Positions 1,487-60,240 of a stretch of 64,000 bases of DNA are shown here, piece after piece. A program made the translations under genes and the position numbers. Positions within the stretch are counted from its first letter, which is position 1. Each line of letters opens with the position of its first letter. This DNA comes from Rickettsiales bacterium (GTDB lineage Bacteria > Pseudomonadota > Alphaproteobacteria > Rs-D84). Location of the stretch: positions 12,738 to 76,737 of the forward strand of contig JAISAB010000002.1 in assembly GCA_031266915.1 (NCBI GenBank), read 5' to 3'. Under the pieces are notes generated by a model. The model was given only the letters and a program-made list of their open reading frames with translations, made no database searches and was not told the origin of the DNA.

Positions 1487-2170
1487 ATGGAAAATAAAAA
1501 AACATCAAGATTCAGTTGGGGCAAATTCGCAGCGACGATATTCGTATTTTTGGCGCTGTTCGTCCTGGGACTGGCCGCTGGTCTGTTTTGGAACGCGGAC
1601 AAAACAAATGGCAAACGCCTTGAATTCAGCCAATACGAATGCGACAGTTTGTCGAGTCAGATAGTAAATGTTGCAAGAAACGATGGTTCCGACAGGGGAG
1701 AGGTATTGAAAGAACTGAACGATATTTATGCGAAAAACTGCGCTGGCCGCATCGTCGAAAAGCCAAAGCCAGCGTCGGAACCGGAAAAGACGGATGCCGA
1801 GGTCGTCAGAAATTGCGATGCGGTTGAAATGGCCATCAAGGGCAACCGTACGGATTCGGATAATCCGGAATATAGTGTTTCAGATACTTGGTATTATGTG
1901 TCCCGCGCGGAGTTTTACGCAACATTGGCAGCGCGCGGCTGTCAGGAAAATTCCGAGAAATATCGCGAACTGGCCCTGCGTGATATTGAAATTTCGCGCG
2001 CGTTGACGAATGACAAGTTTTATGACGACGGCAAAACTCTGGGATTGATAGAGGCTTATAAAAAACTGGATATGAAGCGCGATGCGGAAATGGTTATCGA
2101 CAAGGTGAAACAGCTGACCGACCCGGCGATTGACTTTATCCTGCAAGTTGAAAAAATCATCAACGAATAA
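1487..2170 (+). CDS. Hypothetical membrane-anchored protein (N-terminal transmembrane/signal anchor)
   Basis: Good Shine-Dalgarno (aaggagagaaacATG) and an N-terminal hydrophobic helix; intrinsic terminator immediately downstream. Confidence 0.55.
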   Translation: MENKKTSRFSWGKFAATIFVFLALFVLGLAAGLFWNADKTNGKRLEFSQYECDSLSSQIVNVARNDGSDRGEVLKELNDIYAKNCAGRIVEKPKPASEPEKTDAEVVRNCDAVEMAIKGNRTDSDNPEYSVSDTWYYVSRAEFYATLAARGCQENSEKYRELALRDIEISRALTNDKFYDDGKTLGLIEAYKKLDMKRDAEMVIDKVKQLTDPAIDFILQVEKIINE

Positions 2171-2175
2171 TCAAA

Positions 2176-2204
2176 AAAACGCCCCGAAACGGGGCGTTTT
2201 TCAA
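2176..2204 (+). terminator. Rho-independent terminator (aaacgccccgaaacggggcgttttt)
   Basis: Perfect GC hairpin followed by a T-run directly after the stop at 2170. Confidence 0.8.
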
Positions 2205-2316
2205 TTAACAGTTAATAAAGAATAGAGAATAAAGAATAAATAGCTCAACTAATAGGAATCTACCAAACTGTAATGTAAATACACAATATGTAATCATTTA
2301 ATAAAAATCCATTATT

Positions 2317-3618
2317 TTAATCCGATATTTTTTGCACTAATACACGAGCAAACCCACTTTTTCCGTTTGTATAAGGTTCATATCGTTTATCTTGAACGAT
2401 TTCATATCCGCGTTCCAATAATCCATCCAAAATAGGATTTGCCGATACGGCAAACGGCTTTTCATAATCGTTCGGAATATATCCATTATCAACCAACAAG
2501 GTTTCTGTATCATCATATTTTTTGTTTTTTTCTGGTATATCTGCCATTGGAATAATTTTTAAACATTTTGCTTTTGGACGATTCATGACGGGCAAGTTTG
2601 TGAACCAATGCCCCGCTGCTGTCATCAACTCTTTTTTCGGATTCAGATACCAACGAACCCGTCTATGCCCAGCCCAAACCTTTCCATTCATAAAATACGG
2701 AATGTATGCTGTATTTATTGTGTTTGTATAATTTGATATAATCAAAAACTTCTTACCGCTTTCAATTATTATTTTCCAATAATCTATTGCCCGCGAAAAT
2801 GGCGGGTTCGTGCAAACTATATCCGCTTCATCGTGCAAGATTCGCAAAGATTCTTTATCGTCAAAACTGCCAGTATAGTTGTCTGGTTCTGTTTTTATCT
2901 CTTGAAACCCGTCCTTGGTAAAAATATACCCTTTGCCTTTTGCATTGAATAAATCAAGACCGCCGCTGTAATGCGCACATATTAACTTTTTCAATCCAAG
3001 TTGCATAAAGTTCTGTATAAAATAAAGTGCAAACGCAGATGTATTATTGCCGTTTCGTGGAATGTCGCCGACCGCATCATCGCAATTACAGAAAACAACC
3101 TTATTTATCCAAATCTCTTTATCATACATTGCGATTTCTTTTTCTATGTCTTCATAGCGGGTATAAAACTCATCATTTTTGACTTTTCTTGCTTTTTGCA
3201 TCAGGTCTTTATGGGTTATATCTCTTTCTTTCAATGTTGGTGTTGTTTTCTTGATGATTTTCACAATGCGCTTTTTCGTATCGGGTTTCATAAAAACCTG
3301 TTTGATAAACAACTGGTGGGACTTTATAAAATCAACATATCCATCAAACAGTGCAGAATTATAAAAATAGATTTCACGCCGCGAATCTTCGCGTAATTGA
3401 GGAAAGTGATTTTTTATATCATTTTCCATTTTCTGCATATCCTTGACTTCGCAGGTAAACAAATACTGATAAACGTTATCTTTTGACCTGCCAGTCATGT
3501 TATTATATTCCGACAACCGCCGTTCAAGATTATCGGTCAATCCAATCTTGCATTTTCCTTGTTCTAACGATGCCTGAACAATATAGATATATTGTTTATT
3601 TTTCTTTTCCATGACCAT
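2317..3618 (-). CDS. Low-GC fusion protein: N-terminal GIY-YIG/T5orf172-like nuclease domain plus C-terminal amino-methyltransferase domain (motif IV 'IVCTNPPF'); putative DNA N6-adenine/N4-cytosine methyltransferase
   Basis: KQYIYIVQ…KIGLTDNLERRLSEY (GIY-YIG-like) then …DIVCTNPPFS. GC is about 33% against about 60% for neighbours. ORF tool start is 3822; ATG at 3618 (MVMEKKNKQ) chosen. Confidence 0.65.
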   Translation of the reverse strand: MVMEKKNKQYIYIVQASLEQGKCKIGLTDNLERRLSEYNNMTGRSKDNVYQYLFTCEVKDMQKMENDIKNHFPQLREDSRREIYFYNSALFDGYVDFIKSHQLFIKQVFMKPDTKKRIVKIIKKTTPTLKERDITHKDLMQKARKVKNDEFYTRYEDIEKEIAMYDKEIWINKVVFCNCDDAVGDIPRNGNNTSAFALYFIQNFMQLGLKKLICAHYSGGLDLFNAKGKGYIFTKDGFQEIKTEPDNYTGSFDDKESLRILHDEADIVCTNPPFSRAIDYWKIIIESGKKFLIISNYTNTINTAYIPYFMNGKVWAGHRRVRWYLNPKKELMTAAGHWFTNLPVMNRPKAKCLKIIPMADIPEKNKKYDDTETLLVDNGYIPNDYEKPFAVSANPILDGLLERGYEIVQDKRYEPYTNGKSGFARVLVQKISD

Positions 3619-3954
3619 TTTATCCCTGTTTCTACACTGATAGCAATTATATGATAAACGTTTTGACATTGCAAGGAATTGCATAACATCTGTGATAATC
3701 TGCTTGCGTAGCTGATTTCTTATGCCTTTAATATCAAAGGATGCAGAACAGATTTGAATTCTGTATGCAAATATGTCGTCAACAAGGCGAAGACAGAGGC
3801 AACTAGATAAATATCTCAACAATTACTGGAAAGGTACATTCTTGGTGGTTTAGCTATATTGATAAAAGAACGCCCTGCGCCGCCGCAGGGAAAATATATT
3901 ATTTATCAAGCACAACCGACAAGAATGTACCTTTTTGGCCCCAAAAGCCCAATA

Positions 3955-4052
3955 CTCGTCACCCCGGCGCAGGCCGGGGTCCATTGTGTTCAAACTATGA
4001 ACAATGCCCGTATGATGAATACATTGGATACCGGCCTGCGCCGGTATGACGC
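3955..4052. repeat. Pair of inverted GC hairpins (ccccggcgcaggccgggg … accggcctgcgccggt) flanking an AT palindrome
   Basis: Seen directly; lies between the low-GC methyltransferase gene and tRNA-Gly. The overlapping ORF 3859..4095 (…TPAQAGVH…) is just the hairpin translated. Confidence 0.5.
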
Positions 4053-4207
4053 CAAGAGAGAAGAATGTCGAAAAAGATACATTCCTATCACTTGAGTGAT
4101 CAATATAAAGCGGAATTTGCGGACATCACCGGGTGGCTTTTGCCGCGTTTAATAAAAACTTGATTTCAGCGGCGGTTAGTATATAATCCAAAGGCTTTTG
4201 AGAAAAC

Positions 4208-4250
4208 GCGGGTATAGTTCAAAGGCTAGAATGTCAGCCTTCCAAGCTGA
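4208..4250 (+). other. Truncated duplicate of the 5' half of tRNA-Gly (acceptor 5' strand, D-arm, anticodon stem-loop)
   Basis: 43 nt identical to 4341..4383 of the intact tRNA-Gly and then diverges; no T-arm. Confidence 0.7.
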
Positions 4251-4340
4251 CTACGAAGCTGCGGAGCAGCGAAGTGGGACGCGAGCATGCAAAGCATGCG
4301 CAGCGGTCAAAATGCAAGTTATCTTGCGAATGGGTGTTAT

Positions 4341-4415
4341 GCGGGTATAGTTCAAAGGCTAGAATGTCAGCCTTCCAAGCTGAAAATGCGGGTTCGAGTC
4401 CCGCTACCCGCACCA
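4341..4415 (+). tRNA. tRNA-Gly (anticodon TCC), CCA encoded
   Basis: Cloverleaf GCGGGTA/TACCCGC acceptor, anticodon loop CTTCCAA, T-loop GGTTCGAGTCC, 3' CCA. Confidence 0.85.
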
Positions 4416-4504
4416 AACAAACATCCACTTTAGTTACCCGAAAAAATCCCTTGTAGATGTTTCTACGCAAGGGGTCCGCCCGTCGTTACGGGTGTTTAGA
4501 GATT

Positions 4505-4591
4505 GGGCGTGCGCCGGAGTTGGAGAGCCGGGGCAGACTGTAAATCTGTTGGCTTATGCCTGAGCTGGTTCGAATCCAGCCACTCCCACCA
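4505..4591 (+). tRNA. tRNA-Tyr (anticodon GTA), type II with long variable arm; atypical C8 and one acceptor-stem mismatch
   Basis: Anticodon stem-loop GCAGA-CTGTAAA-TCTGT, variable arm about 14 nt, T-arm GCTGGTTCGAATCCAGC, CACTCCC-A-CCA end. The 5' strand GGGCGTG gives a C4·T69 mismatch. Confidence 0.55.
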
Positions 4592-4598
4592 AAAATAC

Positions 4599-4628
4599 AA
4601 CCGGTCTTGTGCCGGTTTTATTTTTGTG
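4599..4628 (+). terminator. Terminator after tRNA-Tyr (ccggtcttgtgccgg + T-run)
   Basis: Hairpin plus ttttattttt. Confidence 0.6.
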
Positions 4629-4685
4629 GCCTGGGATGGAGGAAGAACCGCTGGTTTGACAAGGAGTCCAAGAGCGAAGCGATTG

Positions 4686-4758
4686 GGAGTTTGCGAAGCA
4701 AACGATACGACTGCCCCGCAGTGGCAAAGCCACAAGGGAATCCAGCCACTCCCACCAA
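4686..4758 (+). repeat. Degenerate tRNA-Tyr-like copy: GGGAGTT 5' end and an exact duplicate of the tRNA-Tyr 3' end (gaatccagccactcccacca)
   Basis: 21-nt 3'-end identity to 4571..4591; the middle part is not tRNA-like; followed by a terminator hairpin at 4767..4790. Confidence 0.55.
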
Positions 4759-4766
4759 AATAGATT

Positions 4767-4851: not shown

Positions 4852-5394
4852 ATGAAAAAAATTGACTTTATTATAAGGGCCGCTGCTCCGGCGGACGCGC
4901 TGCCGACGATACGGATTGGCATCAAGGGCTGGCGGTACGCATACGGAAAAATTATCAGCGAGGGGCGTCTGCGCGAAAACGAGGCGCGAAAAATGTCGCC
5001 TGAGAACATCATGCGGGCGACCGAAGACATCGCTGGCGGCGTTGGCATTCGGCTGGTCGCAACCGACGCGAACGGCAAAGTATTGGGATTCAAATTTAAT
5101 CAGCCGGACGATGACGGCGAATGGCGCGGCGGCGGGACATATATTGACCCGGAATATGTCGGCATGGGAATCGGTCGTGCATTGTTTGTCGAATTTGCGC
5201 GCCGATTGCGCGCGATGGGCAAAGAAAAATTCTGGGTCAGCTGTATGACCGATAATAAATCCATGGATTTTTACAGGAAACTTGGCGGCAAAGTAATAAA
5301 AGAATATCCGTATGAAAAAATGGAAAACAAATCGCTTTCGGAATTGAAGTTCGAGGTCAAAGGTTTCTTCGATAGACATATAATGAAAAAATAA
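4852..5394 (+). CDS. GNAT-family N-acetyltransferase
   Basis: Acetyl-CoA-binding-like motif (VGMGIGRALFVEF) and size typical of GNAT enzymes; start taken at MKKIDF (ORF tool start 4837). Confidence 0.6.
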   Translation: MKKIDFIIRAAAPADALPTIRIGIKGWRYAYGKIISEGRLRENEARKMSPENIMRATEDIAGGVGIRLVATDANGKVLGFKFNQPDDDGEWRGGGTYIDPEYVGMGIGRALFVEFARRLRAMGKEKFWVSCMTDNKSMDFYRKLGGKVIKEYPYEKMENKSLSELKFEVKGFFDRHIMKK

Positions 5395-13060: not shown

Positions 13061-13769
13061 TATCGATTTCGCAATTTTTGATTAGTTTCTGCGCAGCTTT
13101 GTTCGCCAGGAAATAATCCAATCGCAGACCCTGATTCTTTTGCACAGTGTTGCCGCCGCGGTATCCGAACCAAGTGTATCCGACCTCGGTCGGGTGCAGA
13201 TGACGCCATACGTCCAGCCAGCCCGCGTCCAGCCATTTCTGCATGACCGCGCGCGCGGCCGGGGCCGATATGCTGCTGCCACGATAGGCAGTCGGATTCC
13301 ACACGTCGCGGTCTTCGATTGCGACGTTGAAATCGCCGGCCAGAATAACGGCCTCTTCGCTGTCGATGTAACGTTCGATATATTTGGTAAAATGGTTCAT
13401 CCATTCGATTTTGTACGGGAATTTCGGGGAATCAACCGCCTCGCCGTTCGGCATATAGGCATTGATAATGCGGACCCGTCCGTCGACGACGCATTCGATA
13501 AAGCGGGCATTGGCGTCCGGATAGTTCGGCAGGCCGAATGTCGCGTCTTCGATGGAATGCTTGGAAAAGACGGCGACGCCGTTATAGCTTTTCTGGCCGA
13601 ACACCTTGACGTTGTATCCGTATTCGTCGAACAAATTGTGCGGAAAATTGGCGGTTTCGCACTTCAGTTCCTGGACCAGAATTGTGTCGTATCCGCCGCG
13701 GCGCAGGATGTCGATAAAGCTTTCCGCGTGAGCGCGGATTGAATTTATGTTCAAAGTCAGTATTTTCAT
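12999..13769 (-). CDS. xthA: Exodeoxyribonuclease III (Xth, AP endonuclease)
   Basis: MKILTLNINSIRA…, …VQELK…, …LAGDFNV…, …DHTGLSLVI… motifs of the EEP/ExoIII family. Confidence 0.85.
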   Translation of the reverse strand: MKILTLNINSIRAHAESFIDILRRGGYDTILVQELKCETANFPHNLFDEYGYNVKVFGQKSYNGVAVFSKHSIEDATFGLPNYPDANARFIECVVDGRVRIINAYMPNGEAVDSPKFPYKIEWMNHFTKYIERYIDSEEAVILAGDFNVAIEDRDVWNPTAYRGSSISAPAARAVMQKWLDAGWLDVWRHLHPTEVGYTWFGYRGGNTVQKNQGLRLDYFLANKAAQKLIKNCEIDMEPRLADKPTDHTGLSLVIS

Positions 13770-13914
13770 AATATATAATTCCTAATTGCTAATCATGGAT
13801 TCCTGATTTATAATATCTGTTGTCCAATATAAAAACAATAACAAATTCCCACCATGAATAGACATGCACGGGAATAACCTTAAGGGACGCCCGCCTGGCG
13901 CGGGCGCGGAAAAA

Positions 13915-15495
13915 ATGAATATGTTTCAATTGCTGGAAAAGACGACCGGACAGTATCCGAATAATCTTTTCCTGGTGCGCGAGGGCGTGAATTACACGGA
14001 CTTTGTGGATTTGGTGAAAAAACGCGCCGCCGTTCTGGACGGCATGGGCGTCAAAAAGGGCGACGTTGTTGGCATTCTGGCCCATAATATCCCCCAATTC
14101 CCGACCACTTTGTTCGCGATTTGGTATCTGGGCGCGCAATGCCTGCTGCTGGATACTAATCTGACCCCGTTCGAATACAACAACATGGCTGAGCTGACCA
14201 GCTGCAAAATCGTGTTCGCAGAAAACTCGTTCTTTTTCAAGACGAACAAAATCAAGTTCGTGGACATAACCGCCCCGGACGGCGCGGCGAACCCCGATTT
14301 AAAGGCCGCAGCCGTCGAGGCGTCCGACATCGCGACCCTGTCGTTCACATCCGGTTCGACCGGCACGCCCAAGGTCGTTCCACTGACGCACTTTAACTTG
14401 GTTGAATGCGCAAATTCGCTGGAAGACATGAACCGATGGATTAACCCGGGCGATGTCTTGTACGGATTCCTGCCGATGTACCACGTGTTCGGATTCGCGG
14501 TCGAAATCCTGGCGACGCTGCATTACGGCGCCGGGGTCCTGCTGCAGCCGACTGTCAACCCCAAGGACATCATGGATGACTTCAAGACATTTCGTCCGCA
14601 TGTCATTCCGGCCGTTCCGCGTTTGTGGGAGGTATTCCGCAACAAAATTATCGACAATATCAAGTCCCAAAAGAAATGGTGGCTGGTTTCGTTCGTACTG
14701 AAATACGGGAAATCGATGAAAAAAATCGGCTTGGGCTTTCTGGTAAGAAAGGTCCAGGGTCAAATTCTTGGCGTTTTCGGCGGACGCGCGGCGTTGCTGA
14801 TTGCGGGCGGCGCCGCCACCAAGCCTGAGGTCGAAACATTCTACGAGCGCCTGGGGCTGACGTTTATCCAAGGCTATGGCCTGACAGAAACGGTAGGACC
14901 AATTTGCATTTCCAAACCGACAAAAAAACGCTATCCTTTCGCGTTCGGCGGGCCGATAACGAACAACGAATGCGACATCCGTGACAAGAACGACGACGGC
15001 GTCGGCGTGCTGTGGCTGCGCGGGCACCAGGTGTTCGGCGGATATCTGGACAACCCGGACGTGAACGCAGAAGTGTTCGACGAAAAGGGATTCTTCAACA
15101 CAGGCGACATGGTCAGCATGGACCCGAACGGAGAGCTGCATTTCGCCGGCCGCAAAAAGCAGGTCATCGTTCTGGATTCGGGCAAGAACGTTTATCCCGA
15201 CGAGCTGGAGGGATTGTACATAACCATTCCGGGCGTCAAGAATGTCGCCGTATTTGAGCACAAGGTCAAAAACAAAACCGTGTCCTATGCGGTCTTCAGC
15301 GTCGACGACAAGATGACGGTCAACGAGTTGGCGTCCGCCGTCGCGTCAGCCAACAAAAAGGTCGCCAGTTACAAGTGGGTCACGCACTTTGCCATGACGA
15401 CCGAAGACCTGCCGCTGACCAGCACGCAAAAGGTCCGCCATCATGTCGTGCGCGATAAGCTGGTTGCCGGCGATTATCCGACAAGAAAAGAGTAA
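13915..15495 (+). CDS. Long-chain fatty-acid-CoA ligase (AMP-binding family, FadD-like)
   Basis: AMP-binding motifs TSGSTGTPKVV, YGLTET, GDMVSMDPNGELHFAGRKK. Confidence 0.75.
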   Translation: MNMFQLLEKTTGQYPNNLFLVREGVNYTDFVDLVKKRAAVLDGMGVKKGDVVGILAHNIPQFPTTLFAIWYLGAQCLLLDTNLTPFEYNNMAELTSCKIVFAENSFFFKTNKIKFVDITAPDGAANPDLKAAAVEASDIATLSFTSGSTGTPKVVPLTHFNLVECANSLEDMNRWINPGDVLYGFLPMYHVFGFAVEILATLHYGAGVLLQPTVNPKDIMDDFKTFRPHVIPAVPRLWEVFRNKIIDNIKSQKKWWLVSFVLKYGKSMKKIGLGFLVRKVQGQILGVFGGRAALLIAGGAATKPEVETFYERLGLTFIQGYGLTETVGPICISKPTKKRYPFAFGGPITNNECDIRDKNDDGVGVLWLRGHQVFGGYLDNPDVNAEVFDEKGFFNTGDMVSMDPNGELHFAGRKKQVIVLDSGKNVYPDELEGLYITIPGVKNVAVFEHKVKNKTVSYAVFSVDDKMTVNELASAVASANKKVASYKWVTHFAMTTEDLPLTSTQKVRHHVVRDKLVAGDYPTRKE

Positions 15496-59932: not shown

Positions 59933-60240
59933 TCATTAGTCTATAGTGTTTAGTTGATAGTGCATAGTACCCCTGCTTTCGCAGGGGTGACGAGTCTTGA
60001 GTTTTTGGGACCAAAAAGATACATTCCTGTCAATTGAGCATAAATCCCCCACCGGCGCCAACCAACAATCTCCCTGAATTTTCATCGGCAACAAGTTGCC
60101 GGAAAATTCTCCCCCTCTTTAAACAAGAGGGGCAGGTGTCTGATGCAACTAATCACTATATATACTATGCACTACTCACTATCGACTACTTACTACAGAC
60201 TAATGACTATAGACTACTGACTAACCACTGACACTAACGC
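59928..60240. repeat. Composite element: TAGTNNN-heptad arms (59930..59972 and 60148..60240) flanking about 180 bp of GC hairpins
   Basis: Internal hairpins cccctgctttcgcagggg, cggcaacaagttgccg, ccccctctttaaacaagagggg; MITE-like architecture. Confidence 0.6.

Follow-up and report, generated by a model that had tools for sequence, protein, structure and literature searches.

The window, by which we mean the whole 64,000-nt stretch of DNA that was analysed, contains a tRNA-Gly/tRNA-Tyr operon in which a 43-nt block, 90 nt upstream of the first gene, represents a displaced and non-functional copy of the 5′ end of tRNA-Gly. This feature is real, is specific to the lineage and falls into a known class, the displaced partial tRNA gene in its rare 5′ type, with nothing mobile left. 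An origin as the trimmed scar of a tRNA-targeted recombination event is the explanation that we favour, tentatively.

A displaced 5′ fragment at the ancestral position of tRNA-Gly

The repeat search and BLAST both identified positions 4208-4250 and 4341-4383 as an exact direct repeat (43/43 nt, 133 nt from start to start), in agreement with the identity reported in a preliminary description of this locus. An exact 43-mer cannot arise by chance. ARAGORN and Rfam placed a tRNA-Gly(UCC) at 4341-4415 (anticodon TCC), and counting on the sequence showed that the repeat covers its positions 1-43, that is, the 5′ strand of the acceptor stem, the D arm and the entire anticodon arm. The repeat starts at position +1, where the preceding bases of the two copies are C and T, and it ends at the last base of the anticodon stem (position 43), where the next bases are C and A. 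The fragment itself was not called as a tRNA by ARAGORN, whose only calls in the region are 4341-4415 and 4505-4591. With the Rfam model RF00005, positions 4208-4263 scored 23.4 bits, below the gathering threshold of 29. The coordinates of all features are collected in Table 1.

Table 1. Features of the tRNA-Gly/tRNA-Tyr operon and the adjacent island in the window.
Feature	Position	Strand	Basis and remarks
Orphan T5orf172 + EcoRI-type adenine methyltransferase	2317-3612	-	Within the low-GC island
Sigma-70-type promoter of the tRNA-Gly/tRNA-Tyr operon (TTGATT, 16 nt, TATAAT)	4160..4187	+	Consensus scan, 10/12 matches
Native 5′ leader, abutting the fragment rather than the intact gene	4188..4207	+	In the block aligned with L003; leaders of relatives alike in length and sequence
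Displaced 5′ fragment of tRNA-Gly(UCC), positions 1-43	4208..4250	+	Exact repeat; not called as tRNA; at the ancestral position of the gene
90-nt unique spacer with three small predicted hairpins, 53% GC	4251..4340	+	No matches in searches; predicted fold z = -2.4
Intact tRNA-Gly(UCC)	4341..4415	+	ARAGORN; Rfam tRNA 74.5 bits
tRNA-Tyr(GUA), second gene of the operon	4505..4591	+	ARAGORN; Rfam tRNA 39.3 bits
Terminator hairpin (4599-4617) and ~130-nt structured module of RtT-like architecture	4592..4760	+	Repeat search, terminator scan, profile search; not part of the tRNA-Gly event

We compared the locus with 36 relatives, namely 31 species-level loci and five metagenome contigs in which the 43-mer is present unchanged or almost so; the related loci come from uncultured Alphaproteobacteria of guts and termite guts that bear the labels 'Rickettsiales' or Ca. 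Enterousia. The tRNA-Gly/tRNA-Tyr pair lies beside the LppC gene in the 31 species loci. A single tRNA-Gly occupies the site in all 36, and a 5′ fragment was absent from the five contigs and from within 1.5 kb of tRNA-Gly in all 31 species loci. The empty site that the preliminary description had proposed to look for is therefore present in every relative, and the shared arrangement that it had named as the opposing case occurred in none (0/36).

In the loci of relatives that were inspected, each intact tRNA-Gly has a promoter-like TTGNNN/TATAAT sequence approximately 20 nt upstream. Positions 4147-4250 of the window align with the promoter, leader and tRNA positions 1-43 of the related locus L003 as one block with 84.6% identity. 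Since promoter, leader and fragment align together, the fragment occupies the ancestral position of the gene, and the window thus carries a 133-bp insertion made of 90 unique bases and a second copy of positions 1-43. Among the sequences compared, this insertion is confined to the lineage of the window. Both copies carry T6 and T27/A43, fitting the 3′ strand of the window's own tRNA; most relatives have C6. These shared bases and the 43/43 identity indicate that the duplication is recent or was homogenised. The closest relative in a collection of 5.8 billion proteins, after the window's own entry, an NCBI MAG protein, is 74% identical in LppC, and no tRNA was found on the contigs of the next-best LppC (L002 and L058).

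The spacer has a host-like GC content and contains gcatgcaaagcatgc, the palindrome that had been noted in the DNA following the repeat. No match to it was found in the window or the fetched related loci, in viral contigs, in metagenome contigs or in plasmids, and the best match among phages had an E-value of only 0.8. Its similarity to the 3′ part of the tRNA, to the leader and to the local spacers was not significant. The spacer tail AAAATGCAAGTTATCTTGC was considered as a decayed variable loop and T arm and rejected, as the alignment scored no better than shuffles (1564/5000). An ORF across the insertion (39-50 aa) had no database record and no support and was also set aside.

The only strong promoter detected by the scan lies upstream of the fragment, and the only other promoter-like site would begin transcription within the tRNA. 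The terminator scan predicted no terminator between 4208 and 4415, spacer included. The intact tRNA-Gly has no convincing promoter of its own. Since the spacer contains no predicted terminator and no other promoter seems usable, the intact gene is most likely read from the old promoter through fragment and spacer. In the minimum-energy fold predicted for 4195-4415 (z = -2.5), it is the acceptor strand of the fragment, not that of the intact copy, which pairs with the 3′ acceptor strand. If anything, the arrangement may be mildly harmful.

Variable DNA and structured modules around the operon

The neighbouring genes encode LolE/LolD, an unknown 227-aa ORF, the methyltransferase of Table 1, a GNAT acetyltransferase, LppC/LpoA, RsmI, a GTPase and an AddB-like protein. 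The preliminary description had suggested looking for integrase remnants; neither a gene nor a domain of an integrase turned up among these neighbours. Where L003 has an intergenic stretch of 70 nt between the upstream ORF and the tRNA promoter, the window has approximately 2 kb (2158-4146) in its place. A low-GC island lies at about 2244-4096 (~1.85 kb, 31-40% GC); it is absent from L003, and its ends are imperfect 19-nt inverted repeats (2244-2262 and 4078-4096). The island encodes no integrase, and the only phage homologues of its methyltransferase are distant ones (30-37% identity).

The fragment had been linked earlier to this low-GC methyltransferase gene and the nearby hairpins, a link that the comparison with L003 does not bear out. 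The island lies outside both tRNA repeats and upstream of the native promoter, and promoter and leader (4147-4207) stand between it and the fragment; its insertion was therefore separate from the event that produced the fragment.

Palindromic MITE-like hairpin elements occur twice in the window, at 3830-4105 and 59969-60045. The right-hand end of the island, AAAAAGATACATTCCTNTCANTTGAG, recurs together with the preceding hairpin approximately 56 kb away in the second of these, which is another intergenic region. The Logan contig L050 stops at the left edge of the island.

The interval between tRNA-Tyr and LppC is a flexible locus across the relatives, ranging from ~30 nt to ~6 kb. Its cargo is unrelated among species and comprises a GNAT gene (window 4852-5394), an N6/TaqI-type DNA methyltransferase (L039), SAM methyltransferases, a Fic-like protein and small secreted proteins, the relatives with such cargo being L010, L039, L043 and L058. 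The variable regions of L010, L039 and L043 yielded no integrase.

The spacer between tRNA-Gly and tRNA-Tyr (window 4416-4504) also varies, measuring 5-6 nt in many species and 30-196 nt elsewhere. A unit of ~80 nt with two hairpins (GATTTTC...GAAAATC, then GCCCACC...GGCGGGC) recurs as a Gly-Tyr spacer in L003, L004, L012-L015, L039, L043 and L054, and again after the tRNA-Tyr module in L004 and L054. In five relatives an 18-nt piece of the tRNA-Gly 3′ end lies ~97 nt downstream of the gene. In L012, L013, L016, L019 and L039, tRNA-Gly is followed by a ~97-nt module that closes with a 17-18-nt copy of the 3′ end of the gene. This copy seems to run on into a T arm with a shortened loop (GCGGTTTCCCGC). 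The 3′ fragments of these relatives are the counterpart of the 5′ fragment in the window.

The operon contains a second partial tRNA copy, which the preliminary description missed. The final 20 nt of tRNA-Tyr and three A recur exactly at 4738-4760 (4738-4757 correspond to tRNA-Tyr positions 68-87), and in ~15 relatives a copy of the tRNA-Tyr 3′ end is found 142-166 nt downstream of the gene. The tRNA-Tyr modules resemble one another in sequence and are found in many species of the clade. A profile built from ten such modules matched 18 loci besides the window with E < 1e-5, all beside tRNA-Tyr (L004, L006, L008-L012, L015, L018, L025, L028, L034, L037, L039, L043, L047, L053 and L054). The profile also matched L001, a contig that does not differ from the window in the 340 nt aligned and that we counted apart from the 18.

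The modules consist of a terminator-like hairpin, a G-rich strand, GAUGAGAAC, the 5′ half of a T arm (CUGGUUCGAC), ~80 nt with two hairpins, the 3′ half of the T arm, the 3′ acceptor strand and CCA, in this order. The copied tRNA-Tyr end amounts to the last 15-20 nt including CCA. Hairpins P2 and P3 hold their position while their sequences change, and 7 of 10 pairs show compensatory changes. A predicted helix closing the module between its 5′ and 3′ ends was no better than shuffles and was dropped.

The layout is the same as that of the RtT repeats of E. coli tyrT-tyrV (RF00391), with which the modules have the short motifs GAUGAGAAC and GGUUCGAC in common. The composite motif ATGAGAANC-N(0-14)-GGTTYGAC occurs, among ~1 Mb of loci, only in these modules and in E. 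coli RtT. As expected of RtT, the unit follows tRNA-Tyr(GUA) immediately on its 3′ side and closes with approximately the last 20 nt of that tRNA including CCA, in the window as in ~15 relatives and E. coli. The Rfam RtT model (gathering threshold 45 bits), which gives the four E. coli copies 133-138 bits, found no match in the window or L012 even at E ≤ 10, and the alphaproteobacterial profile found none in E. coli. The two conserved boxes of the module were not found in viral contigs. The module resembles E. coli RtT in architecture and is at most a candidate homologue.

Several further observations concern the tRNA-Tyr region. The Rfam model tmRNA_permuted gave weak matches at window 4564-4691 and L012 12670-12751 (12.8 and 18.7 bits against a cut-off of 47). 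They span the T arm and CCA of tRNA-Tyr, the terminator hairpin and the 5′ part of the module, an order reminiscent of a two-piece tmRNA with its acceptor piece, loop and coding piece. In L010 (15237-16700), ~1.3 kb of AT-rich DNA containing two small ORFs interrupts the module behind its GCCCCACAGG box, ahead of the tRNA-Tyr 3′ fragment. L041 carries three tRNA-Tyr 3′ fragments in series (~12.7-13.3 kb), and L015 two different module types in tandem (13640-13980). Inspection by eye showed a C4-U69 mismatch in the tRNA-Tyr acceptor stem (GGGCGTG / CACTCCC), both strands of which are the same in relatives; it may explain the modest Rfam score of 39 bits.

Origin and meaning of the fragment

The favoured explanation is that the fragment represents a trimmed scar of tRNA-targeted recombination with 5′ polarity, left by Campbell-type recombination inside the tRNA-Gly gene. 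Incoming DNA would have carried its own copy of tRNA positions 1-43 and crossed over with the chromosomal gene inside the shared block, most plausibly in a site-specific reaction centred on the anticodon loop ('5′ polarity'). The chromosomal 5′ part would have remained behind its promoter, and the incoming 5′ part together with chromosomal positions 44-75 would have formed a rebuilt working gene farther downstream. The inserted DNA would later have been deleted almost wholly, leaving 90 bp, and the pre-tRNA made from the old promoter would presumably be freed by RNase P.

This proposal is consistent with the structure of the locus. Both boundaries fall on tRNA landmarks (+1 and the last anticodon-stem base), as expected if the incoming copy had to restore a functional 5′ part around a core site in the anticodon arm; random breakpoints would rarely do so. 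The fragment passes the Islander rules for a genuine tDNA fragment, being an end fragment in the same orientation and, as a 5′ fragment, upstream of the intact gene (PMC4383910). It stands where relatives carry the intact gene, the 133 bp being inserted in this lineage only, and the shared T6 and T27/A43 together with the perfect identity suit a recent event or homogenisation. An order of repeat, unique DNA and repeat is what a single crossover with repeat-bearing DNA would produce. A simple tandem duplication can be rejected, since only 43 of the 133 nt are repeated, there is no whole head-to-tail unit, and Tandem Repeats Finder returned no array. The terminator-free stretch 4208-4415, with the sole strong promoter upstream of the fragment, and the flexibility of the neighbouring tRNA-Tyr-LppC interval also fit.

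Other observations weigh against a recombination scar. The 90 bp between the repeats hold no integrase, gene or recognisable arm sites, no element was found at this site in any relative examined, and the variable regions of L010, L039 and L043 offered no integrase either. A viral attP with the 43-mer was absent from the viral contigs searched, with the variants of the relatives allowed. The spacer combines host-like GC (53%) with the GCGAAG-type hairpin style of the tRNA spacers of the clade, so that a native or paralogous spacer fits equally. Perfect identity of the repeats calls for a young event, yet near-total loss of the element is required as well, and the nearest relative (74% in LppC) is too distant to date the event or catch an intermediate. 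Of the two origins offered in the preliminary description, tRNA-targeting recombination stands as the best reading; as to an excised or decayed integrative element, no integrase was seen among the neighbouring genes and no element at this site in any relative.

A route that does without a recombinase is nearly as likely. Either a second copy of tRNA-Gly arose upstream by tandem or ectopic duplication, or homology-facilitated illegitimate recombination took place with DNA of a relative in which tRNA-Gly had a different 5′ flank; positions 44-75 of the first copy would then have been lost by deletion, together with part of the spacer. The identity begins at +1 in this case because two gene copies with different upstream contexts are compared, which leaves only one breakpoint (43/44) to explain. 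The failure to find an integrase anywhere nearby agrees with this route, as does the style of the spacer, which resembles the inter-tRNA spacers of the clade. L055 has a spacer of ~130 nt with abundant GCGAAG-type motifs in front of a tRNA-Gly whose acceptor strand carries the same T6. Short repeats are also at hand close to both junctions: AAGCTG (tRNA positions 37-42) recurs 6 nt into the spacer, and GGGT is present ahead of the tRNA start as well as within it. In E. coli, tyrT-tyrV is a known case of tandem tRNA genes whose spacers bear fragments. However, all 36 relatives have a single tRNA-Gly here, the spacer shows no detectable similarity to local or related spacers, the breakpoint coincides exactly with the end of the anticodon stem, and the 43/43 identity requires a recent duplication or gene conversion.

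An artefact of assembly or of a mixed population, in which one intact gene exists and the 90-nt loop was threaded in from another molecule or strain sharing the 43-mer, is unlikely, and we assign it a small probability. The window does come from a metagenome-assembled genome, the Logan contigs of SRR14710922 break at window ~2241, ~3985 and ~4522, and look-ups of four ORFs in or near the region returned no independent contig across 3985-4522. These breaks, however, coincide with known repeats, namely the palindromic element (also at 59969-60045), the 43-mer and the tRNA-Tyr sequence with its 95-100% identity among relatives. To place the 90 nt here, any assembler needs reads across both junctions, from the last base of the 43-mer into the spacer and from the spacer into tRNA position 1, so that a molecule with fragment, spacer and tRNA start must exist. 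A 43-nt repeat is moreover shorter than the reads and should thus be resolvable.

An RNA-templated origin is less probable still. A reverse transcriptase or repair polymerase, primed at a break at 43/44, would have copied mature tRNA-Gly up to its RNase P-made 5′ end and then jumped to the source of the 90 nt, and the product would have been ligated in. Such a reaction would account for one boundary at the mature 5′ end and for the other at the insertion point, but the neighbouring genes include no reverse transcriptase, no poly-A or other hallmark of retro-insertion is visible, the 36 relatives hold no second example, and the scenario is purely inferential. Least probable of all is a functional leader in which the 5′ half was kept as a pre-tRNA decoy or regulator, for instance by competing for the 3′ acceptor strand or by giving a stable tRNA-half-like RNA: the predicted pairing in 4195-4415 (z = -2.5) speaks for it, yet the feature is a singleton conserved in no relative, and such competition would be likelier to harm maturation of the tRNA than to regulate it.

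A broader and improbable reading would make the tRNA-Gly fragment and the RtT-like tRNA-Tyr module two products of a single process in the clade, one that inserts small modules with tRNA fragments at their borders into tRNA operons, either recombinase-independently or by means of a very small non-autonomous element. If so, the 133-bp unit (90 nt and tRNA positions 1-43) would be the first example with 5′ polarity, and it would represent either a miniature element that inserts and excises via the 43-bp block or a tRNA-templated insertion.

A partial tRNA gene is by itself of little weight, and annotators should mistake such a copy neither for a gene nor for an island border. What sets this one apart is the rare 5′-fragment configuration with almost nothing left between the repeats. 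The locus also teaches two cautions. A low-GC gene nearby is no evidence that a tRNA fragment marks its island, and partial tRNA copies within tRNA operons can belong to conserved structured modules instead of being integration scars, as the tRNA-Tyr 3′ repeat illustrates. The adjacent RtT-like module is more interesting than the tRNA-Gly fragment. The function of RtT is still unknown (bioRxiv 10.1101/2024.07.17.603846), and if the module is truly related to E. coli RtT, gut Alphaproteobacteria offer comparative data on this old question.

Comparison with known systems

Among the closest known systems are the integrase-mobilised islands collected in Islander, of which 159 out of 3919 (~4%) carry a 5′ fragment and 3760 a 3′ fragment (PMC4383910); the preliminary description was right to call a 5′-half repeat atypical. 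Anticodon-centred sites are common (2083; PMC4383910), and repeats of 43-44 bp are typical, with 44 bp in PYG1 of Pyrococcus yayanosii (PMC9897764) and 43 bp here. Like these islands, the window has an intact tDNA and a directly repeated cognate end-fragment in the same orientation on the same replicon (4208-4250 and 4341-4415, both +). The fragment comprises positions 1-43 from the 5′ end and begins 133 nt upstream of the intact copy, and the identity block spans the whole anticodon arm, as at anticodon-centred att sites. Unlike them, it has no tyrosine integrase between or overlapping the repeats and no cargo, the 90 bp between the repeats contrast with island lengths of 2-200 kb, and the fragment is of the rare 5′ class.

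The CIMEs of Streptococcus are cis-mobilisable or decayed islands that have kept both att repeats and lost their recombination genes; known examples are kilobases long and homologous to a parent element. The window shares with them direct att-like repeats around integrase-free DNA, but nothing between its repeats is identifiable. The distal repeats of E. coli tyrT-tyrV (RtT RNA, RF00391) are similar in being partial tRNA copies within a tRNA operon that do not mark island borders. They are, however, 3′ fragments, located downstream and recurring across species, whereas the tRNA-Gly fragment is a 5′ fragment, located upstream and unique to the window. Finally, tRNA pseudogenes and truncated tandem copies resemble the fragment as non-functional partial copies beside a functional gene; the fragment differs from them in that its identity is perfect, its boundaries match structural ones exactly and the spacer has no relation to the local flank.
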